Source: Candidatus Latescibacterota bacterium (GTDB lineage Bacteria; Latescibacterota; UBA2968). Taken from it: a DNA stretch of 64,000 nucleotides. The translations under genes and the position numbers were made by a program. The stretch is from assembly GCA_965207885.1 (NCBI GenBank), contig OZ242311.1, positions 3,488,001 to 3,552,000 of the forward strand, written 5' to 3'. Below are positions 27,869 to 38,031 of the stretch, piece after piece (position 1 is the stretch's first letter; every line of letters starts with the position of its first letter). Below the pieces are notes generated by a model. That model saw only the letters and a list, made by a program, of their open reading frames with translations. It was not told the DNA's origin and searched no databases.

Positions 27869-28831
27869 ATGGGCAAAATTGCTGGTATTTTGTTCGCGTT
27901 AGTCGCTTCTGTTGGCGCGGCGGAAAAGTCGCAGATGTTGCGTGCCTGGGCAGAGGATCATTGGGCTGTGGTGACGGTGGGTGAAGTGACCGGAACTGTT
28001 GTGGTTATCAGCCCAGCCGTAGGGCGAGAAATTGATTTTGATGAGGGCAATCAATTGGGCGTTTTTCAGGGCGCGACAGAATATACAAAGCACCACAACA
28101 TGCCCACGCTGACACAGCTGGTATCGGGATTTCAGTCTGCTGTATTTCTCAAAATGGCAGATGATCAATACGGCATCTGTGTCACCTTTCGCGACGAGGC
28201 CGGTACGCGCTGTCGGTTGCTACACATCCGAGATGTAGAGGAACTGAATCGCATTCGAGATTATATCCATCGGATGGCCGTTGTGCATGACGCGCCAAAT
28301 TATCCATTGGTGACAGATGAAAAAGTGACTTACAAAGTAATATCACCTGTTTATCGCGCCTATGAACGGTTACAAGTAAAAATGGCACTGGCAAATGGCG
28401 AGCAAATAAAAGGTGAACTCTTGCCAATGATGGAAGATGGGCAAATGCTCATCAACACGTCCCTGGGATTTCGACGGATCAAAATGGATGTCATTGACCA
28501 GATTCGCATTGCACCGCGCGGAGGCAAACGGATTGTGACCAGGACAATCAGGAACGGCCTGAAGTACGGCATTTTGGGCGGGATTACGGGATTGCTCGCG
28601 GGTTGGTCTTTCGAAGGCTTATCCGCCAAAAATGAAATGCTTCTCGGTACTCTATTGGGCGGAACGGTTGGGGCTTCTATCGGATTTTTAGATGGGCTGA
28701 TGTCGGTGGAACGTGCCCGAACATTTCGATTTGAACATGGTGATGCCCATAAAAAACCGAAGATCCGACTTTTGCCGCAGCAATTAAAGCCACCCAAATC
28801 AATCTTTTTTAGACTTTCTTTTTCCATTTGA
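27869..28831 (+). CDS. Hypothetical exported protein with a Gly-rich hydrophobic hairpin near the C-terminus
   Basis: AAGGAG RBS; signal-like N-terminus; GILGGITGLLAG / LLGTLLGGTVGASIG glycine-zipper-like segment. Confidence 0.7.
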   Translation: MGKIAGILFALVASVGAAEKSQMLRAWAEDHWAVVTVGEVTGTVVVISPAVGREIDFDEGNQLGVFQGATEYTKHHNMPTLTQLVSGFQSAVFLKMADDQYGICVTFRDEAGTRCRLLHIRDVEELNRIRDYIHRMAVVHDAPNYPLVTDEKVTYKVISPVYRAYERLQVKMALANGEQIKGELLPMMEDGQMLINTSLGFRRIKMDVIDQIRIAPRGGKRIVTRTIRNGLKYGILGGITGLLAGWSFEGLSAKNEMLLGTLLGGTVGASIGFLDGLMSVERARTFRFEHGDAHKKPKIRLLPQQLKPPKSIFFRLSFSI

Positions 28832-28930
28832 TTGTAACCCAATCTTCACTCCCGCTTAATACGATAGAAACAATGATACCTTATTTTTGTGTGTCATTAT
28901 TCTGCGTCTCGTTCAGCAAGGAGTTGGGTT

Positions 28931-29779
28931 ATGGTCAACGCCTCATCCAAACAATCAGACACCAGTCTCGAACACTATCTCAAAGAACTCTCCCACTCTC
29001 ACCCCATCTCTGCTACAGAAGAATTTGAACTCGCCGTCAAAATGAAGCGAGGTGACCTCAAAGCGCGCAATCGCCTGATCAAAGCCAACCTCCGTTTTGT
29101 GGTCAACGTGGCTCTGAAATACCGCAATCAAGGCGTGGCCCTGGCCGATCTGATCAGTGCCGGCAATATAGGCCTCATTACAGCCACCGAACGCTTTGAC
29201 GAAACACGCGGTTTCAAATTTATCTCTTATGCCGTCTGGTGGATTCGCCAATCTATTCTACAAACGCTCGCCGAACAGGGGCGTATGATCCGTTTGCCTA
29301 TCAACCGGTTGGATCTACTGCGTCGAATTAAAAACTTTAGCGACGAGTATCAATCCAATAAAGGCCACAGGCCCACAGAGGCGGAAATCGCCAGTGAATT
29401 TCACATCACCGAAGACCAGGTCATCGATATGCTGTCTCACAGTCCGATCGTATTTTCTTTGGACAAACCAATTCATGACGAAGATACAACCCTCATCGAT
29501 TTGATGCACGACGAAGATCAGGCCCCACCAGATGCTGCAATATTTCACAATGCCCTGCGAGATGAAGTCAACGATCTGCTCCATACCCTGGATAATCGTG
29601 AAGCCGACGTTATCCGTCTCTATTTTGGTCTCGATGGCTCCAGTTGGACACTTCAGGCCATAGCCAACAAATATAGCCTCACGCGTGAGCGCGTGCGCCA
29701 AATTAAAGAAAAAGCCCTGCGTAAATTGCGTCACCCCTCTCGGGGGCGCAAACTCATTGCGTATGCAGAAGCGGGATAA
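28931..29779 (+). CDS. RNA polymerase sigma-70 factor, RpoD/SigA family, short form lacking region 1.1
   Basis: ANLRFVVNVA, DLISAGNIGL, RGFKFISYAVWWIRQSI, LTRERVRQIKEKALRKLR. Confidence 0.93.
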   Translation: MVNASSKQSDTSLEHYLKELSHSHPISATEEFELAVKMKRGDLKARNRLIKANLRFVVNVALKYRNQGVALADLISAGNIGLITATERFDETRGFKFISYAVWWIRQSILQTLAEQGRMIRLPINRLDLLRRIKNFSDEYQSNKGHRPTEAEIASEFHITEDQVIDMLSHSPIVFSLDKPIHDEDTTLIDLMHDEDQAPPDAAIFHNALRDEVNDLLHTLDNREADVIRLYFGLDGSSWTLQAIANKYSLTRERVRQIKEKALRKLRHPSRGRKLIAYAEAG

Positions 29780-29802
29780 CCTGCTATATCCCAATAAAAA
29801 TG

Positions 29803-29842
29803 AAAAAGCCTTTGAAGCGCGTGTCTTCAGAGGCTTTTTTTT
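29803..29842 (+). terminator. Rho-independent terminator
   Basis: aaaaagcctttgaag ... cttcagaggcttttttt. Confidence 0.8.
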
Positions 29843-29860
29843 ATTATCTAACGCCAAAAC

Positions 29861-29895
29861 TTGATTTGTCTGAAGTTGTTATATACATTGATGTA
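29861..29895 (+). promoter_or_regulatory. Promoter with an overlapping palindromic operator for the antitoxin gene
   Basis: TTGATT-17 bp-TACATT; the palindrome TACAT-tg-ATGTA overlaps the -10 box. Confidence 0.55.
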
Positions 29896-29906
29896 CAGGA
29901 GGAAAA

Positions 29907-30140
29907 ATGAAAATTATTACATCCACTGAATTCCGTCAGCATGTGGCGGCGTGTTTAAATGCTGTTGAACGGGGCGAGACGTTTCGTATATTGCGGCACG
30001 GTAAACCTGTTGCCGATCTAAAACCCATAAAAACAAACAACACTGTACCTTCCTGGAAACGGTGTATTGAACCGATCACACTAAAAGGTATTTCTGTATC
30101 GGATATGATAGTAAAAGAAAGAGATGAGTACGGACGATGA
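29907..30140 (+). CDS. Type II TA antitoxin, Phd/YefM family
   Basis: MKIITSTEFRQHVAACLNAVERGETFRILRHGKPVADL. Confidence 0.9.
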   Translation: MKIITSTEFRQHVAACLNAVERGETFRILRHGKPVADLKPIKTNNTVPSWKRCIEPITLKGISVSDMIVKERDEYGR

Positions 30141-30151
30141 ATGCTTTTTTT
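30137..30151 (+). pseudogene. Five-codon stub of a deleted VapC/PIN toxin gene
   Basis: ATGA overlap with the antitoxin stop gives M-N-A-F-F, like PIN toxin N-termini (MxAFFDTS); similarity ends there. Confidence 0.4.
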
Positions 30152-30189
30152 AAAGTCACTATTTACCGAGACCCAATAGGAGGCAAGCG

Positions 30190-30759
30190 ATGGACGTTTT
30201 GGAAGCTATTCACACGCGGCGCACAATTTTTAAGTTCAAACCGGGTGGTGTGCCCAAAGATGTAATTGAAAAAACTTTTGAGGCCGGCCTTTGGGCACCA
30301 AATCACCATTTAACAGAACCGTGGCGATTTGTAGTCCTGGGAGAAGAAACCAAAGAAATACTGGCGCAACGCTACAGCGAAATTCAGGAAGAAAAAGCGG
30401 CTGAAGGTGCGAGTGATGAAGCCAGGCAGATATTAAAAGAGGCCGGTTATGCCAAGTTCATGTCAAAGCCCACAATTATTGCAGTGGCATGTCTGCAGGA
30501 TGGTGATGACATCAAGAACAGAGAAGATTATGCAGCCGCGTGTTGCGCCATGCAAAATGTACAGTTGGCTGCCTGGGCAGAAGGGGTTGGCATGCAGTGG
30601 AGTACGGGGCCGATTACGCTGGAAGAAAACACCTACAAATTGCTGGATGTAGATATCGAGACCGAATACATCATCGGATTTTTCTATACTGGATATCCGG
30701 ATGAAATACCAGAACCGAGGCGCAAACCCCTCGAAGAGGTGCTGAGCTGGACGGATTGA
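30190..30759 (+). CDS. Nitroreductase family protein (YdjA-like)
   Basis: AIHTRRTIFKF, WAPNHHLTEPWRF, MQNVQLAAWAEGVGMQWSTG. Confidence 0.9.
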   Translation: MDVLEAIHTRRTIFKFKPGGVPKDVIEKTFEAGLWAPNHHLTEPWRFVVLGEETKEILAQRYSEIQEEKAAEGASDEARQILKEAGYAKFMSKPTIIAVACLQDGDDIKNREDYAAACCAMQNVQLAAWAEGVGMQWSTGPITLEENTYKLLDVDIETEYIIGFFYTGYPDEIPEPRRKPLEEVLSWTD

Positions 30760-30770
30760 TTCCGCTAACC

Positions 30771-31589
30771 ATGAATGGCTTTGAATTTTTTGTTCTCTAT
30801 CGCCTGCCCTATTTCGCATTGCCTTTCTATCTCATCATGTTAGGCGTGCGAATATGGGTATGGATGCGGTTTTACAACCCCGCGCTCAAGCTATTGCCAC
30901 GAGCCAGGAGATCTGTATATGGCGTGTGGAAGCAGCAGTACCGCCCAACCATTCACATTTTTCCCGGACCGCGCTCAAAAAATACAGAATGGAAGCGCGC
31001 GATAAAAGGCTTTATTTTTTTTACTGGTCTCTATAAGCGCGACAAAATACTGTGGCTGGGCTCCTGGTCCCTCCATTTGGGACTGTTTCTGGTAATTGTA
31101 GCTCATGTCCGCGTGATTTTGCCGCTCGACCTGGACCCAATCTGTTTGCGCATCGCATTGATCGGCAGTGGATTGATGACTGTGTCGGGCACTTATTTAT
31201 TGGTCCGTCGGATAATCGTTCAGCGCGTGCGAGAAATTACGGACTTTCGGGATTATCTGGCGGAATTTATTCTCCTGTCCTTTTCTGCGACAGCATTTCT
31301 CGTCGTATTAGACGGTGGCGTGTCATCCGAAGCCTTGCGCCACTATGTGTCTGGCCTATTGACAGGCACCTCGGCAGTTATTGAAGGACAACGCATTTTT
31401 GTGTGGCACTTGCTCGCCGCACAACTCTTATTGGTTGTGATCCCCTTTTCCCATCTATTGCATCTGGGCGGAATTTTTTGGAGCCGCGAATTTTTGGGTA
31501 CATCCGATACATTTGCGGGAGAATTTGGATCGGGATTTTCAGGATTAAAGGATGGACAGGATGAAAAACCACTAACCACTAACCACTAA
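30771..31589 (+). CDS. dsrM: DsrM/NarI-like di-heme cytochrome b membrane subunit (alternative TTG start at 30756)
   Basis: WLGSWSLHLGLFLVIVAHVR and WHLL...IPFSHLLHLGGIF supply four conserved His heme ligands; RVREITDFRDY. Confidence 0.8.
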   Translation: MNGFEFFVLYRLPYFALPFYLIMLGVRIWVWMRFYNPALKLLPRARRSVYGVWKQQYRPTIHIFPGPRSKNTEWKRAIKGFIFFTGLYKRDKILWLGSWSLHLGLFLVIVAHVRVILPLDLDPICLRIALIGSGLMTVSGTYLLVRRIIVQRVREITDFRDYLAEFILLSFSATAFLVVLDGGVSSEALRHYVSGLLTGTSAVIEGQRIFVWHLLAAQLLLVVIPFSHLLHLGGIFWSREFLGTSDTFAGEFGSGFSGLKDGQDEKPLTTNH

Positions 31590-31594
31590 CCACT
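31533..31594. repeat. About 9-bp ggat-periodic repeat followed by a perfect (aaccact)x4 heptamer array at the dsrM/dsrK junction
   Basis: ggat at 31533, 31542, 31550 and 31559; aaccact at 31567, 31574, 31581 and 31588. Confidence 0.8.
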
Positions 31595-32961
31595 TGAGAA
31601 TCAAAAAATTGGAAAATCCAGATCAAACAGAACGCGAAAAAAAATACATTCCAACAGGCCTGGCTGGCACGTATATGCGACGCATTGCCGAATCAGACCC
31701 ATTTGTCCGAGAGATTCAAGATGAACCATCGGCATTGCGCCTGTACATGGATACGTGTACCAAATGCGGGGTGTGCGCACAGGAATGCCCGGTGTATTAT
31801 GGGCAGCCCGATAAGCGCATGCATCCGGTGGAACGCTCTCGGCAGGTGATTCGTTTATACAAAAAGTACACGACATTTTGGGGGCGATTTTGGAACGCCA
31901 TTTTTCCAAAGCCCGATTTTGAAAATAACGATGCCGAGTTATTTGCCGAGCGCATGTACGAGTGTTTGACGTGTCGGCGATGTGCGGCATTTTGTCCTGT
32001 AGGAATCGATCATTCGGTGATCTCGCGCGTTGGACGCTCGCTTGTCGATTTAATGGGTTTGACGCCGCCATCCCTTGCACAGGGCACGCACAATTCATTT
32101 GAAACGGGCAATTTAGAAGGCGCGTCAGCCGAGGCTTTTTTGGATGCGATTCAATTTATCGAAGAAGAACTCAAAGAAGAAACAGGACGGGATATTTCAA
32201 TTCCCTTAGACCGAGAAGGCGCGGAAATTTTCTTTTTGCCGCCGTCGGGTGATGTGCTGGTATATGCTGAAAATTTAATGGGCATGGCGAAAATTTTTCA
32301 CGCCATCGGTGCCGATTGGACGATGAGCTCGCGGGCATTTGACGGATCGAATTTCGGATTTACGACCGGCAATAACTTCTCAATGAAGTACGAGAACAAG
32401 CACTACATTGACGCGTGCGAAAAATTGGGATGTAAGATCATGGTAATGGGCGAATGCGGGCATGCGTATCGGGTGATGAAGTTCATGGCCAGCGAAGGGC
32501 GCTGGTGGGGCGCATTGCCTTTTGAGATTACCAGCGGCTTTGAATATACGGCACAACTTATTCGCACGGGCAAACTGAAATTGGACCCGGGCAAAAACCT
32601 CGATCCCGTGACTTATCACGACGCTTGCCAATTTGCTGCCGGGTGTGGGATAGTCGAGGAACCCAGAGAGATTTTGAAAGCAGCCTGTGCCGATTACCGC
32701 GAAATGCCCGATGGCGGGTACACACAGTGGTGTTGCGGTGGTGGCGGTGGGTTATCGGCACTCCGCTCGGTACGCACATTTCGGATGGAGGTCTCGGGAA
32801 AAAAGAAAGCAGAGCAAATGCGCGAGACCGATGCGAAGGTCGTATCGACCTCGTGTTTGCAGTGCCGCACACAGCTCAAAGAAATCGCTCGCCATCACAA
32901 AATGCCACTAAAAATTACGGGTGTACACGAGTTGATCAACAATGCGATTGTACTGGAATAG
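31594..32961 (+). CDS. dsrK: DsrK/HdrD-like (Fe-S)-binding heterodisulfide reductase-family protein
   Basis: CTKCGVCAQEC and CLTCRRCAAFCPVGID ferredoxin motifs; GECGHAYR; TYHDAC...WCCGGGGG...SCLQC CCG domain. Confidence 0.85.
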   Translation: MRIKKLENPDQTEREKKYIPTGLAGTYMRRIAESDPFVREIQDEPSALRLYMDTCTKCGVCAQECPVYYGQPDKRMHPVERSRQVIRLYKKYTTFWGRFWNAIFPKPDFENNDAELFAERMYECLTCRRCAAFCPVGIDHSVISRVGRSLVDLMGLTPPSLAQGTHNSFETGNLEGASAEAFLDAIQFIEEELKEETGRDISIPLDREGAEIFFLPPSGDVLVYAENLMGMAKIFHAIGADWTMSSRAFDGSNFGFTTGNNFSMKYENKHYIDACEKLGCKIMVMGECGHAYRVMKFMASEGRWWGALPFEITSGFEYTAQLIRTGKLKLDPGKNLDPVTYHDACQFAAGCGIVEEPREILKAACADYREMPDGGYTQWCCGGGGGLSALRSVRTFRMEVSGKKKAEQMRETDAKVVSTSCLQCRTQLKEIARHHKMPLKITGVHELINNAIVLE

Positions 32962-32971
32962 CCGATAGCTC

Positions 32972-34180
32972 ATGTCTGATTTAATTTACATGGACAACGC
33001 GGCGACGACGTTTCCAAAGCCCCCCAATGTGCTGGAAGACGCGCTGGCGTTTTATCGCAAATACGGGGTAAATCCCGGGCGCAGTGGCACGGATCTGGCG
33101 CGAGAGGCCGAGGCTATGGTTGCCGAGGCGCGTGCATCGCTCGCGTCGCTTTTTGGCGCCACGGGCAGTCCCGATCGGCTTGTGTTTACACACAATGCCT
33201 CGGATGCGTTAAATATTGCGATTCAAGGCACATTGAAACCCGGTGATCACGTAATTACAACGCTCCTAGATCATAATTCGGTTTTGCGCCCGATTTACCA
33301 CCTCTCAAAATACGAAGGAATTGAGGCGACTTATGTGGGCTTTGGGACAGATGGCTTTATCGACCCAGAGGATATTGATAGAGCGATCAGGCCGAATACA
33401 AAACTCGTGGTGATGACCCATGCATCCAATGTACTGGGCACTGTGCAACCCGTAGCCGCGGTCGGTGCAATTTGCCGTACACGCGGTGTAATTTTTTGCG
33501 TTGATGTGGCGCAAACAGCGGGCATGTTGCCCATTGATATAGAGGCGATGCAGGCCGACATTTTGTGTTTTACCGGACACAAGTCACTCATGGGACCAAC
33601 GGGTACTGGTGGGATGTACGTGCGCGAAGGGGTGACAATTGCACCGTTGCGATACGGCGGAACGGGTGTGCGATCGGAATATCCCGATCATCTGGACGAG
33701 TATCCCTGGCGACTGGAGTGCGGCACGGGCAATCTGATGGGTATTGCAGGCCTGTTGTGTGCGCAGAAATGGATGCAACGCAAAGGCGTGGAAAATATTC
33801 ACGCACACGAGATGGCTTTGTTCAAACAACTGGTCAATGGCCTGCGCGAAGTCGATGGGACCATTTTGTATTGCGCTGAAAATTTTGATCAACACGTGCC
33901 CGTATTGTCGGCCAATATCGAAGGGATGACAGCAAACAATGTGGGCACCTTGCTAGATGTGAAGTTCAATGTGGCAACGCGCACGGGATTGCAATGCGCG
34001 CCAAAGGTACATGAAACTCTGGGCACAAAAGCGGTGAAGGGCACTGTGCGTATTTCGTTAGGCCCCTTCAATACCGAAGCACAAATTGAGACTGTAATTG
34101 AGGGCTTGAGTGATATATCCAAACGGCATGGGCGAAGCAGTGAACAACTGCTAAAAGGTCAGGTGCGGAATGGCCTATGA
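32972..34180 (+). CDS. Cysteine desulfurase family protein (class V PLP)
   Basis: YMDNAATTFPKP, HNSVLRP, FTGHKSLMGP (PLP lysine), RTGLQCAP with catalytic Cys. Confidence 0.9.
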   Translation: MSDLIYMDNAATTFPKPPNVLEDALAFYRKYGVNPGRSGTDLAREAEAMVAEARASLASLFGATGSPDRLVFTHNASDALNIAIQGTLKPGDHVITTLLDHNSVLRPIYHLSKYEGIEATYVGFGTDGFIDPEDIDRAIRPNTKLVVMTHASNVLGTVQPVAAVGAICRTRGVIFCVDVAQTAGMLPIDIEAMQADILCFTGHKSLMGPTGTGGMYVREGVTIAPLRYGGTGVRSEYPDHLDEYPWRLECGTGNLMGIAGLLCAQKWMQRKGVENIHAHEMALFKQLVNGLREVDGTILYCAENFDQHVPVLSANIEGMTANNVGTLLDVKFNVATRTGLQCAPKVHETLGTKAVKGTVRISLGPFNTEAQIETVIEGLSDISKRHGRSSEQLLKGQVRNGL

Positions 34181-34493
34181 GATTGTGACGCTGGGTGGCA
34201 AAGAAATTGAGGTGGATGAAGATGGATTTATCCAACAACCCGAGCTTTGGAACGAAGATGTAGCGCGCGATATAGCCAGACAAGATGGCATTGAGAAGAT
34301 GAGTGAGGATCACTGGCAGGTAGTGTATTATATCCGAAATTATTGGTTGAAATTTGAAATCGCCCCATTAATCCGCCGCCTGTGCAAAGAGACAGAGAAA
34401 GATATCGATACGATTTACGATCTGTTTTCTGCAGGTCCTGCAGATGGCGCGTGTAAAATCGCGGGTTTGCCAACCCCTACGGGGTGTACGTGA
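34170..34493 (+). CDS. dsrC: DsrC-type sulfur carrier with both C-terminal cysteines (CX10C)
   Basis: EVDEDGF...W...HW.VV..IR.YW...IAP.IR.L...IYDLF..GP..GACKIAGLPTPTGCT. Confidence 0.9.
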   Translation: MAYEIVTLGGKEIEVDEDGFIQQPELWNEDVARDIARQDGIEKMSEDHWQVVYYIRNYWLKFEIAPLIRRLCKETEKDIDTIYDLFSAGPADGACKIAGLPTPTGCT

Positions 34494-34519
34494 CCGCTAA
34501 AAATGAGTTTTAACAAAAC

Positions 34520-34556
34520 GAGGCGATTCCCAATAGGAAATCGCCTCAATTTTTTT
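34520..34556. terminator. Terminator between convergent genes
   Basis: gaggcgatt ... aatcgcctc flanked by A and T runs. Confidence 0.75.
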
Positions 34557-34571
34557 AAGCTTTAATCAACT

Positions 34572-35468
34572 CTATCCCGTACGCGCTTGAATATTCGACA
34601 TATCTTCAATAACCGTGAGCAAACCCGAATGGTCAAGTTCGCCGCGGCCTTTGACCATCGCGGTCTTGAAAAGCTCAAAAACCTCGCTGGTAACGGGCAA
34701 GGGCACGTCGAAATCATTACTCGTTTTCTGGATGATATTGAGGTCTTTGTAGTGCAGGCGAATGCGAAAGCCGGGATCAAAATCGCCATTGACCATGCGC
34801 TCGCCCCTGTTTTCAAGCACACCACAGCGAGCGAGCCCCCCGCTGAGCACCTGAACAATTTTGATTGGATCAACACCTGCTTTGGTACCCATTGTGAGGG
34901 CTTCTGATACGCCAGCAATGGTGACAGCAACGAGAATTTGATTGCACGCTTTTACGGTTTGCCCTGCGCCGAGGGGACCACACAAAATCGCACTTTGACC
35001 CATGATATCAAAGAGTGGTTTGACCGTGTTAAACGTATCTGCATCGCCGCCAACCATAATGGAAAGGGTGGCATTTTGGGCACCGATATCACCGCCGCTG
35101 ACGGGTGCATCGAGACTTTGGACGCCTTTTTCTGAGAGCACCTCCCCCACCTGTGTGGTGACACTGGGTGCAATCGTGCTCATATCGACGAAAATCAGAC
35201 CCTCGTGCACGCCTTCAATAATCCCGCCCTCGCCCAAAGCGACACTCTCGACATCGGGCGAATCGGGCAACATAGTGAGAACAATATCGCTTTGTTCCGC
35301 CACCTCTTTACCAGAGTGCGCTTCTGTAGCCCCTCTACCAACGAGTTCATCAACCGCATCTCGATTGCGGTTGTGTACGACGAGTTCATATCCAGCATCT
35401 ATCAAATGACCGGCCATCGGCTTGCCCATGATCCCGAGACCGATAAACCCAATTTTTGGCTTCGACAT
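34572..35468 (-). CDS. garR: 2-hydroxy-3-oxopropionate reductase / beta-hydroxyacid dehydrogenase
   Basis: IGFIGLGIMGKPMA, DMSTI, LDAPVSGG, KACNQI, GFRIRLHYKDL. Confidence 0.85.
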   Translation of the reverse strand: MSKPKIGFIGLGIMGKPMAGHLIDAGYELVVHNRNRDAVDELVGRGATEAHSGKEVAEQSDIVLTMLPDSPDVESVALGEGGIIEGVHEGLIFVDMSTIAPSVTTQVGEVLSEKGVQSLDAPVSGGDIGAQNATLSIMVGGDADTFNTVKPLFDIMGQSAILCGPLGAGQTVKACNQILVAVTIAGVSEALTMGTKAGVDPIKIVQVLSGGLARCGVLENRGERMVNGDFDPGFRIRLHYKDLNIIQKTSNDFDVPLPVTSEVFELFKTAMVKGRGELDHSGLLTVIEDMSNIQARTG

Positions 35469-36455: not shown

Positions 36456-37286
36456 TCAGTCAATAAATAACGGCTGATCGGATCGCGGTACAATGCCCGC
36501 TTCTTCTGCCCGCGCAAAAAGATCGACCAGCGCTGCTTTTCCATCTGCGCCGTAATCCAACGTGTATTCATTGACGTACAGATCGATGTGCTGCTGCATC
36601 ACGGCTTCGTCCATCTCCTGTGCGTGCTGGCGGATGTAACTTTTAACTGCATCGGGGTTTTCATGTGCATATTTTACACTGGCGCAAAGAGATACATCAA
36701 TCTGCTGAATTTTTCCTTCGCCGAGATCACGTCGGACAAGAATACCGCCGAGTGGAATGGGATGTCCCGTAGATGCCTCCCACCATTCGCCCAGGTCAAT
36801 GACTTTGTACAGACCATAATCGGGATAGGTAAATCGCGATTCGTGGATAATCACGCCGGCATCAACATCGCCTTTTTGCGTGGCCTCCATAATCTCGTCA
36901 AAAGGCATTGCGACGAGATTGTCAAGTGCAGGATTAAAGAGACGCAGCAAGAGCGCGGCCGTGGTGAGTTCGCCGGGAATGGCAATGCGTTTGCCCAACA
37001 GATCGCGTGGATCAAGAGAGTCAGACGCAATAACGAGCGGGCCACATCCGCGCCCCAATGCCCCTCCCGAATGCAACAAACAATAGCGATCGCGCATAAA
37101 TGCAAGCGCGTGGAATGATATTTTGGTCATATCCAATTTACCAGCCATAGCCATGCGATTCAGAGTCTCGATATCTTCGAGAATCTCGCGACATCTCGGC
37201 GCGCCGTCAATTTTTCCGTGAACCAAACCGTAGAAAATATACGTGTCATTGGGACACGGGGAATAACCAAGAGAAATACGGGACAT
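36456..37286 (-). CDS. mqnD: 1,4-dihydroxy-6-naphthoate synthase
   Basis: LGYSPCPNDTYIF, GALGRGCGPL, IIHESRFTY, DLGEWWE, HIDLYVN. Confidence 0.95.
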   Translation of the reverse strand: MSRISLGYSPCPNDTYIFYGLVHGKIDGAPRCREILEDIETLNRMAMAGKLDMTKISFHALAFMRDRYCLLHSGGALGRGCGPLVIASDSLDPRDLLGKRIAIPGELTTAALLLRLFNPALDNLVAMPFDEIMEATQKGDVDAGVIIHESRFTYPDYGLYKVIDLGEWWEASTGHPIPLGGILVRRDLGEGKIQQIDVSLCASVKYAHENPDAVKSYIRQHAQEMDEAVMQQHIDLYVNEYTLDYGADGKAALVDLFARAEEAGIVPRSDQPLFID

Positions 37287-37299
37287 GATGAACCTCGCG

Positions 37300-38019
37300 T
37301 CATAGAGCCTCAACGAATTTTCGCGCTGCTATTTGCGCACGCTGGACAGATTGGGGAATATCCCAGGTGTCTTTGTTGCGGTCTTCCACACGGTTGCTAA
37401 TAGCGCGTAATTCGAGAAATGGAACCGCGTAAAGGATGCAGACATGTGCCGCGGCTGCGCCCTCCATGTTTTCGCATATCGCATTAAAACGCGCTGCCAA
37501 TTCATTCCCAATATCCTCGCGCCCTGTACACTGTTGCACTGTGACAAAAGGACCTTGCACAACACATTCGCCCGATTGTTCGAGTATGTGCTGCGCCCTG
37601 GCGACAAGCGCGGGATCGAGAGAATACGTATTGTAATAATCGCGATCTGTTGACAGGACGGGAATACCGATCTCATCAGCAGGAGACCAGCCAGCAGGTG
37701 TGATGACGCCTAAATCGCCATAATTTTCCTCGGTCGCAAGTGCGAGATCGCCCTTATCCAGGCCACTGCCGAGATAAGCACCGCCTATGCCGATTTGCAG
37801 AACGAGTTCGGGATCAATCTCCTGCAGTGCAACAGTCAGAGCCTGCGCCGTATTGACCGCCCCAATACCCGTTTCAACAAGGACTACGGGGCTGATGCCA
37901 ATCATACCGCGAACCCAGGCGCGATGTCCTATACGCTGTATTGTCGCCTGTTGAAGGCTATCGCGCAAACGCTGTTGCTCATAAGCCGTAGCTGTCAGGA
38001 TGAGCAGAGGATCGAGCAT
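37300..38019 (-). CDS. mqnB: Futalosine hydrolase (alternative GTG start at 38031)
   Basis: PNP/UDP fold (GIGAVN, GIGGAY, CENMEGAAAA, RAISNRVEDR); adjacent to mqnD. Confidence 0.9.
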   Translation of the reverse strand: MLDPLLILTATAYEQQRLRDSLQQATIQRIGHRAWVRGMIGISPVVLVETGIGAVNTAQALTVALQEIDPELVLQIGIGGAYLGSGLDKGDLALATEENYGDLGVITPAGWSPADEIGIPVLSTDRDYYNTYSLDPALVARAQHILEQSGECVVQGPFVTVQQCTGREDIGNELAARFNAICENMEGAAAAHVCILYAVPFLELRAISNRVEDRNKDTWDIPQSVQRAQIAARKFVEAL

Positions 38020-38031
38020 GGTCTTGAGCAC

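Follow-up and report, generated by a model that had tools for sequence, protein, structure and literature searches.

A conserved DsrM-DsrK-cysteine desulfurase-DsrC gene module in sponge-associated Latescibacterota lacking DsrAB

This study concerns a compact gene module located in a 64,000-nt stretch of DNA (hereafter the window) of Candidatus Latescibacterota bacterium (assembly GCA_965207885.1, contig OZ242311.1, positions 3,488,001 to 3,552,000 of the forward strand), in which genes for a DsrM-like membrane anchor, a DsrK-like iron-sulfur subunit, a cysteine desulfurase (CSD) and DsrC follow one another. The module is maintained throughout most of the host family, a family of uncultured sponge-associated bacteria, in genomes without dsrA over cut-off. 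It suggests a hitherto undescribed, quinol-linked conversion of cysteine sulfur to sulfide, the mechanism of which is plausible but unproven. DsrC and DsrMK are currently assigned to DsrAB-based dissimilatory sulfur metabolism and serve as its markers in metagenomes, and a literature search found no description of a DsrC/DsrMK module with a cysteine desulfurase. Neukirchen et al. (2023), whose analysis mainly covered DsrABCMK holders, mention a few lineages with DsrK or DsrM and without DsrAB, and the main text of that article, as distinct from its supplements, never uses the word 'desulfurase'.

Gene order, distribution and genomic setting

All five genes of the unit lie on the forward strand. 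The first one encodes a YdjA-like minimal nitroreductase (NTR) of 189 aa (30190-30759; PF00881, 92 bits) and overlaps by 4 bp the gene for the DsrM-like membrane anchor, a putative dihaem cytochrome b of 277 aa (30756-31589), which is followed after a gap of 4 bp by the gene for the DsrK-like catalytic iron-sulfur subunit (455 aa; 31594-32961; Fer4_8 and CCG matches). The CSD gene, coding for a group II cysteine desulfurase of 402 aa (32972-34180; PF00266, 300 bits), begins after another gap of 10 bp and overlaps by 11 bp the last gene, dsrC (107 aa; 34170-34493). A GC-rich terminator hairpin with T-runs on both strands (34519-34548) separates dsrC from a convergent gene for a 2-hydroxy-3-oxopropionate-reductase-like protein; it was predicted on the reverse strand, and the forward strand has the same stem followed by AATTTTTTT. 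Spacing of the reading frames and position of the hairpin agree with an earlier note on this DNA, made from the letters alone, which had described a tight five-gene unit ending at a terminator; its observation, that is, the unit itself and the gene identities, is confirmed, and the motifs that it had quoted (RTGLQCAP in CSD and C-KIAGLPTPTG-C in DsrC) are both present in the translations.

The distribution of the module was surveyed in 168 genomes of the phylum, the window genome included (31 from the host family and 137 from other families), using a DsrK threshold of E ≤ 1e-40; the Latescibacterota genomes that were also reached through loci L007-L011 and L044 are probably among the 168 and were not treated as independent. 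A window-type DsrK was found in 29 genomes, all of which belong to the host family (29/31, against 0/137 in the other families): 21 of 21 in the host genus, 8 of 8 in four further genera and neither of the two in a sixth genus. DsrM adjoins DsrK in 28 of the 29 loci, the remaining locus having a glycosyltransferase insertion; in each of the 27 loci where no contig end intervenes, CSD is located directly 3′ of DsrK, and DsrC comes next after CSD wherever the flank extends far enough, the M-K-CSD-C order being found in five genera. The same gene order was seen in metagenome contigs with a DsrK 86-89% identical to that of the window. None of the 31 family genomes has a dsrA over cut-off. Furthermore, DsrC is missing as well from the two DsrK-less genomes of the family, which are 95% and 100% complete, and their desulfurases are merely 30-35% identical to CSD, i.e. 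CSD has been lost together with DsrK and DsrC; no close CSD was found in 22 genomes of the sister family. The linkage to the desulfurase without dsrAB, on whose conservation the earlier note had made its case depend, therefore holds. Pairwise dN/dS values, computed against five to seven relatives, were 0.04-0.18 for all five genes (NTR 0.05-0.08; DsrM-like 0.09-0.18), which indicates purifying selection.

The description as a five-gene module stands only in part: the DsrM-DsrK-CSD-DsrC core is constant, whereas NTR is not and is only loosely associated with it. In 20 of the 29 loci NTR precedes dsrM by no more than 1.5 kb; in other loci unrelated genes separate the two over 0.3-3 kb, and for one genus and one further genome of the host genus the flank retrieved contained no NTR. 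Its nearest solved structures are uncharacterised nitroreductases and YdjA, and a search for a more specific function among solved structures and in a protein atlas gave generic nitroreductase or YdjA-like relatives only; a role as NAD(P)H-side partner is a guess. The insertion between dsrM and dsrK (L130:5146-6315, in one genus) is a GT4 glycosyltransferase gene in the same orientation. Downstream of dsrC, one genus (L129:9718-11774, L130:9647-11856, L131:2387-4470) has genes for an AhpC/TSA-type thioredoxin-fold protein and a DUF6029 protein (Pfam assignments made on L130).

The genome is a single closed contig of 6.23 Mb, 97% complete, in which neither dsrA, dsrB nor aprA gave a match over cut-off, so that the absence of dsrAB from the window, as seen in the earlier note, extends beyond it. 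Weak dsrA and dsrB matches both fall within one 742-aa NirA-family protein, and an ATP-sulfurylase-like gene is present with a score below its cut-off. By tblastn, the genome contains a single DsrK, a single DsrM, a single DsrC and a single NTR of this kind, and no DsrAB, DsrN or DsrEFH/TusBCD (the latter searched with DsrE/F/H queries). No dsrJOP genes lie beside dsrMK, where CSD and dsrC follow dsrK instead, no genome-wide search with dsrJOP models having been made. One TusA-like and one DsrE-like gene, considered as an alternative sulfur donor, were set aside since they are unlinked to the operon, being 2.5 Mb away. That locus (G000:C1:977560-982465; L176:3560-8465) consists of two sulfatase genes, the TusA-like gene, the DsrE-like gene and a gene for a fusion protein with a weak TusA-like N-terminus and a cobalamin-independent methionine-synthase-like domain.

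Encoded proteins, predicted complex and relatives

The DsrM-like protein has NF038037 (DsrM) as its best NCBIfam model, with a score of 49.7 bits against an equivalog cut-off of 300, and matches the NarI-like family PF02665 with 39.4 bits. Four histidines (H107, H117, H218 and H236), which are the candidate haem ligands, are present in 29-30 of the 30 aligned rows. The DsrK-like protein scores 314.6 bits with the DsrK model NF045796, below the cut-off of 400 and above TmcB (222.6) and HmcF (205.9); for comparison, the DsrK of a dsrEFH-MK cluster (L094) scores 469 and those of the sister clade described below 344-352. Of 91 rows, 99-100% retain its two CxxCxxCxxxC motifs (eight cubane cysteines) and the five cysteines of the CCG domain (C345, C380, C381, C421 and C424); with the non-ligating pair C288-x-H290 included, the range is 88-100%. 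The four histidines of DsrM and the cluster motifs of DsrK noticed earlier in the single sequences are thus kept across the aligned rows. C288-x-H290 was equated with C329/H331 of Archaeoglobus fulgidus DsrK by motif, not by alignment to that protein. An attempt to map A. fulgidus Asp500 failed; an invariant Asp, D343, is present here.

With 419.7 bits, CSD exceeds the TIGR01977 cut-off of 377, and the pyridoxal phosphate lysine and the catalytic cysteine are in place: H203-K204 and C342 are invariant in 63 rows. With the model for the selenocysteine lyase SclA (NF040779), in contrast, it scores 330.8 bits, below the cut-off of 525. Three further full-length desulfurases are encoded elsewhere in the genome, i.e. 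an IscS-type enzyme adjoining an ApbC/Mrp carrier, a SufS within sufB-sufD-sufS-sufU, and a NifS-like one. Next to these housekeeping enzymes, the CSD of the operon is thus an extra, dedicated fourth desulfurase.

DsrC matches PF04358 (113.8 bits; cut-off 24.9) and TIGR03342 (109.1 bits; cut-off 53.5), and its score with the TusE equivalog NF008562 is 78.2 bits against a cut-off of 191. The two cysteines of the C-terminal arm, the penultimate C106 (CysA) and C95 eleven residues before it (CysB), are invariant in 58 rows, and all orthologues end in GACKIAGL(P/S)TPTGCT. The best solved relatives are 1ji8 (111 bits), 2xsj (92.5) and 1sau (92.1), the solved DsrC relatives coming from Pyrobaculum, Desulfomicrobium, Archaeoglobus and Desulfovibrio, compared with 37 bits for the TusE-like sulfurtransferase 7syb. 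Identity is 61% to a Desulfofundulus DsrC and 47-49% to DsrC of rDsr-type clusters. Judged by sequence, the protein is of the sulfite-reducer type and not of the TusE type, in keeping with the distinction from TusE-type carriers drawn in the earlier note, in a genome that offers it no DsrAB to work with.

The desulfurase-DsrC complex, the modelling of which the earlier note had recommended, was folded as a three-chain job (CSD dimer and one DsrC) using our own alignments of 63 rows for CSD and 58 rows for DsrC. The ipSAE values were 0.65, 0.66 and 0.64, as opposed to 0.00 for all three controls, with at least 77% contact agreement between runs and partner pLDDT of at least 86. In calibration the mark was passed by 58 of 80 solved complexes and by 2 of 110 mismatched pairs, rates that apply only roughly to a three-chain job with own alignments. 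The predicted interface joins residues 320-331 and 385-386 of one CSD protomer and 37-44 of the other with residues 64-92 of DsrC, and would adjoin the Cys342 loop of CSD and the base of the DsrC arm.

The next DsrK relatives, 47-53% identical, come from Gemmatimonadota, Planctomycetota, Myxococcota, Zixibacteria, Elusimicrobia and others. The order dsrC′-dsrM-dsrK occurs in 27 of their 35 loci, often with MerR-type and Rrf2 regulators and a fused double DsrC-like gene nearby, and in three Gemmatimonadota loci it adjoins DsrN-, DsrL- and DsrAB-like genes. dsrA was over cut-off in 19 of the 23 genomes holding these loci, versus none of six Latescibacterota genomes tested alongside. A quick LG+G4 tree of DsrK, built from 56 of the 91 rows, places the 6-row window clade (stem 0.71) as sister to a dsr-linked clade of 23 rows with an SH-aLRT of only 90, and a 37-row clade (support 99) contains both sister clades and the DsrK of the dsrEFH-MK...C-N cluster. 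The dsrC′ of the sister clade, with Tyr in place of CysB, is a different protein from the window DsrC, and the CSD relatives outside the host family (54-57% identity) belong to several phyla. Since DsrK, CSD and DsrC have different nearest kin, assembly of the module from separate parts would fit better than decay of a dsr locus.

The dsrAB-holding Gemmatimonadota, Planctomycetota, Myxococcota, Zixibacteria and others (L012-L040, L052 and L066; e.g. L017:3217-8275) show a peculiar DsrC variant 5′ of dsrMK, which keeps CysA, has the Tyr at CysB and carries a new Cys in the motif LFPCG. These loci also encode a fused double DsrC-like protein of ~215-221 aa that retains CysB and is without CysA, and a second, HmcF/TmcB-like DsrK paralogue.

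Pairs of CSD and a DsrC-family protein also occur in two other phyla, which independently backs the idea that the two proteins meet. In a Syntrophobacter-order sample of 81 genomes, 19 loci encode a CSD ≥53% identical to that of a Syntrophobacter metagenome-assembled genome (MAG) with dsrA, which carries a second string Rrf2-Usp-DsrM-DsrK-CSD with no adjacent DsrC (L046:4351-9525). A DsrC-family gene lies directly upstream of CSD in 12 of the 19 loci, and these DsrC-like partners have CysA only (…GARRLAGLPNPKSCF) and are 35-40% identical to the window DsrC. In 11 loci (L136-L153, e.g. L137:3-2667) a xanthine dehydrogenase (XDH)-family gene, a CysA-only DsrC/TusE-like gene and a TIGR01977 CSD gene stand in a row, and in four more CSD lies beside an N-terminal XDH part (two representatives of each type were scanned with Pfam). 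This three-gene string looks like a candidate set for sulfuration, or selenation, of the molybdenum cofactor. A sample of 301 Bacteroidota genomes was examined as well: of its 30 top-scoring CSD loci, three have a CysA-only DsrC-like gene paired with CSD and none has DsrK. The 30 best DsrC loci of the same sample are dsr-type; twelve of these best loci, taken with wider flanks, showed the M-K-C order in 9, CSD in none and dsrA in all 12 genomes, and eight lower-scoring DsrC loci showed no CSD, no DsrK and one DsrM-like match. As a separate observation, several desulfurase homologues 77-82% identical to the CSD of the Syntrophobacter MAG carry one in-frame TGA (G026:C1:5273041-5274204; G256:C44:46526-47689, L136; G262:C49:67480-68643, L137), and may be selenocysteine-containing desulfurases or lyases.

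The proposed sulfur route and its alternatives

From this gene set we infer a series of chemical steps, a direction of electron flow and a physiological role. The CSD would load cysteine sulfur onto DsrC, and DsrMK would reduce it with menaquinol, the whole being self-contained and independent of DsrAB; we favour this reading tentatively, giving it slightly less than an even chance. That is, the group II CSD would draw sulfane sulfur from L-cysteine onto Cys342, leaving alanine, and the sulfur would move from there to the penultimate C106 on the flexible C-terminal arm of DsrC. The resulting DsrC persulfide or, after attack by C95, a C95-S-C106 trisulfide or disulfide would enter DsrK. The sulfur would leave as H2S. 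Menaquinol would supply the electrons, its oxidation taking place on the periplasmic face of the dihaem DsrM in a DsrMK-only complex ('DsrM-1'), and DsrC would return to its starting state. The overall equation would read cysteine + menaquinol -> alanine + H2S + menaquinone, which could serve as an electron sink or as a disposal route for cysteine sulfur, and could add to the proton-motive force.

The late part of such a route has a counterpart in the work on A. fulgidus DsrMKJOP (10.64898/2026.08.25.746951). According to that report, a non-ligating Cys-x-His of DsrK is strictly conserved, its Cys was seen persulfidated and is proposed to relay sulfur from CysA of DsrC to the non-cubane cluster, DsrC without CysB can still be a substrate, and the DsrM of DsrMK-only complexes, unlike that of DsrMKJOP, is proposed to oxidise quinol. 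On account of this relay and of the CysB-less substrate, a CysA persulfide made by a desulfurase would enter the known mechanism late. The idea put forward in the earlier note, that the desulfurase substitutes for DsrAB, is supported in part, by the absence of dsrAB, the conserved linkage, the sulfite-reducer type of DsrC, the Cys-x-His of DsrK and the fold, while a carrier or biosynthetic role would fit the selenium and molybdenum links of the CSD family.

Several points weigh against the menaquinol-driven route. Menaquinol is a weak reductant for a persulfide. Both DsrK and DsrM score below the NCBI equivalog cut-offs, and the long stem of the window clade (0.71 changes per column in the quick tree) could signal a changed substrate. 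C106 and C342 themselves are outside the confident contacts of the fold. The Syntrophobacter-order pairs of CSD and DsrC-like protein, which stand beside XDH-family genes and without DsrMK, suggest that such pairs act in cofactor maturation. Moreover, TIGR01977 is tied to selenium, Haft and Self (2008, PMC2276186) having listed it, within the selenium-dependent molybdenum hydroxylase trait, as a probable selenocysteine lyase, and its characterised member SclA prefers selenocysteine (10.1101/2020.02.07.939272). In view of the XDH-adjacent pairs and of the Haft and Self listing, enzymes of this type may often serve cofactor or selenium trafficking.

These points lead to two alternatives in which the respiratory output is dropped or changed. 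CSD and DsrC could deliver sulfur to a cofactor or RNA, e.g. as the terminal sulfido ligand of an XDH-family enzyme, DsrMK only resetting or gating the redox state of DsrC. The XDH strings of the Syntrophobacter order, the CysA-only pairs of Bacteroidota and the five XDH-family molybdenum hydroxylase loci of the window genome speak for it, but we consider it unlikely: the nearest of those five loci is ~210 kb from the operon, the DsrC here is a two-cysteine, sulfite-reducer-type protein no more than 35-40% identical to the CysA-only carriers, the genome has no TusBCD by tblastn, and a quinol-linked membrane reductase that is co-inherited and co-lost with the pair would be superfluous for pure delivery. 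CSD might instead act as a selenocysteine lyase, with selenium held between the two cysteines of DsrC and reduced by DsrMK to selenide for SelD. This fits the 'selenocysteine lyase' label of TIGR01977 (Haft and Self) and the match to the SclA model, as well as the presence of a selD gene with an in-frame TGA, i.e. a selenoprotein SelD, in the genome (G000:C1:5699275-5700198) and in 30 of the 31 family genomes, the TGA being found in all 30. However, the SclA score is below cut-off, selD is 2.2 Mb from the operon, and the co-distribution of selD with the module shows no pattern in favour of selenium, in that selD is present in both module-less genomes and went undetected in one module-bearing genome of 98% completeness; we regard such a function as decidedly unlikely. 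The CSD residue aligned by position to SclA H100 and human D146 is an invariant Asn, which decides nothing.

DsrMK(JOP) and DsrC operate in reverse in sulfur oxidisers, and DsrMK could here oxidise DsrC thiols or bound sulfide into the menaquinone pool, with CSD as a second sulfur source. The DsrC of the rDsr-type cluster dsrEFH-MK...C-N (L094), which is 47% identical to that of the window, is consistent with this direction. As the genome has no rDsrAB, DsrEFH or DsrL-type partner to consume the oxidised DsrC product, the reverse reaction would be left without a sink, and we judge it very improbable. Still far less credible is the notion that the module is an evolutionary leftover of a dsr locus after loss of dsrAB, devoid of coupled function. 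The nearest DsrK relatives do come from dsr loci of dsrAB-holding genomes, but strong purifying selection on all genes, the constant order across five genera and the differing nearest relatives of the parts, which fit assembly better than decay, argue against it.

The menaquinol-driven reduction of desulfurase-derived sulfur can be compared with four known systems. DsrMKJOP is a menaquinol:DsrC-trisulfide oxidoreductase (PNAS 2024, PMC10861901; 10.64898/2026.08.25.746951). With DsrC/DsrMK ('DsrM-1') of sulfite and sulfate reducers the module shares a NarI-like, putatively dihaem anchor with four histidines, a DsrK with two cubane clusters, one CCG domain and the Cys-x-His, a two-cysteine DsrC (61% identical to that of one such organism) and menaquinone genes nearby. 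It differs from them in having no DsrAB, DsrD, DsrN or, as judged at the loci, DsrJOP, in having CSD in the place of the sulfur donor, and in its DsrK and DsrM falling under the equivalog cut-offs; besides, sulfur respiration is not known from the host family. In the E. coli relay IscS-TusA-TusBCD-TusE-MnmA and in the IscS/TusA-DsrE-DsrEFH-DsrC transfer of Allochromatium vinosum (PMC3397948), a desulfurase persulfide ends on the penultimate cysteine of a protein of the DsrC/TusE family, as proposed here; in the window, by contrast, no TusA or DsrEFH stands between enzyme and carrier, the carrier has both cysteines, and the co-inherited partner is a membrane reductase and not MnmA or rDsrAB.

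SufS with SufE or SufU, and CsdA with CsdE, are group II desulfurases with a dedicated acceptor. The window has likewise a group II enzyme (RxGxxCA-type loop) whose gene overlaps that of its presumed acceptor, with predicted docking at the active-site entrance built by both protomers. Unlike in those systems, the acceptor has the DsrC fold and the partner genes are respiratory instead of belonging to Fe-S assembly, for which the genome has its own sufBD-sufS-sufU. As to SclA (PMC2276186; 10.1101/2020.02.07.939272), CSD has in common with it the TIGR01977 membership and the positions of the catalytic residues (K204/C342 versus K202/C341); CSD differs by its score, by not being beside selD or molybdenum hydroxylase genes, and by a Gln instead of a His before the catalytic Cys.

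If the menaquinol-driven route exists, with DsrC fed by a desulfurase, the DsrC cycle would no longer be tied to sulfite reduction, animal-associated bacteria would gain an organosulfur route to sulfide, and the module would provide a simple two-protein system for studying persulfide handling by DsrK, the proposed late step of the canonical mechanism. A bolder and unlikely extension is that DsrC/DsrMK is itself the terminal reductase, DsrAB-less sponge symbionts respiring the sulfane sulfur of cysteine ('cysteine-sulfur respiration') with energy conserved by the DsrM quinol loop. In that case the symbionts would be an unrecognised source of H2S, and dsrC and dsrMK would be unreliable markers of sulfite or sulfate metabolism.

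Expression and neighbouring features

The sequencing runs that contain the stretch are mainly labelled as sponge and marine metagenomes. Each of the five genes is covered in part by contigs (88-99% alike) from four sponge metatranscriptome libraries of four studies, and one metatranscriptome run covered 28 of 30 bins, the uncovered bins being uninformative. The junctions NTR/DsrM, DsrM/DsrK and DsrK/CSD are spanned by contigs from the RNA libraries; no listed contig spans the CSD/dsrC junction by 31 letters on each side. Assembled contigs of this kind cannot prove a single transcript, and DNA carry-over is possible in RNA libraries. A depth spike at 31410-31580 was ignored: in three runs, contigs with many loose ends accumulate over ~35 bases (31529-31562) at the 3′ terminus of dsrM, and they probably represent short matches from other organisms.

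Menaquinone genes of the futalosine pathway, which the earlier note had placed near the operon, were recovered by profile at 36456-38031, 2-3.5 kb away: a gene of the MqnA/MqnD family (VitK2_biosynth; 36456-37313) and mqnB (37300-38031; TIGR03664, 220 bits). An Rfam scan of 28500-35000 for riboswitches or leaders gave only two chance-level matches, and a promoter scan gave no excess over shuffled sequence. Upstream of the operon there is a second terminator-like hairpin (29802-29840), and a Phd/YefM-type antitoxin-like gene (29907-30140), which has no toxin gene after it, lies just 5′ of the operon and recurs upstream in three relatives.

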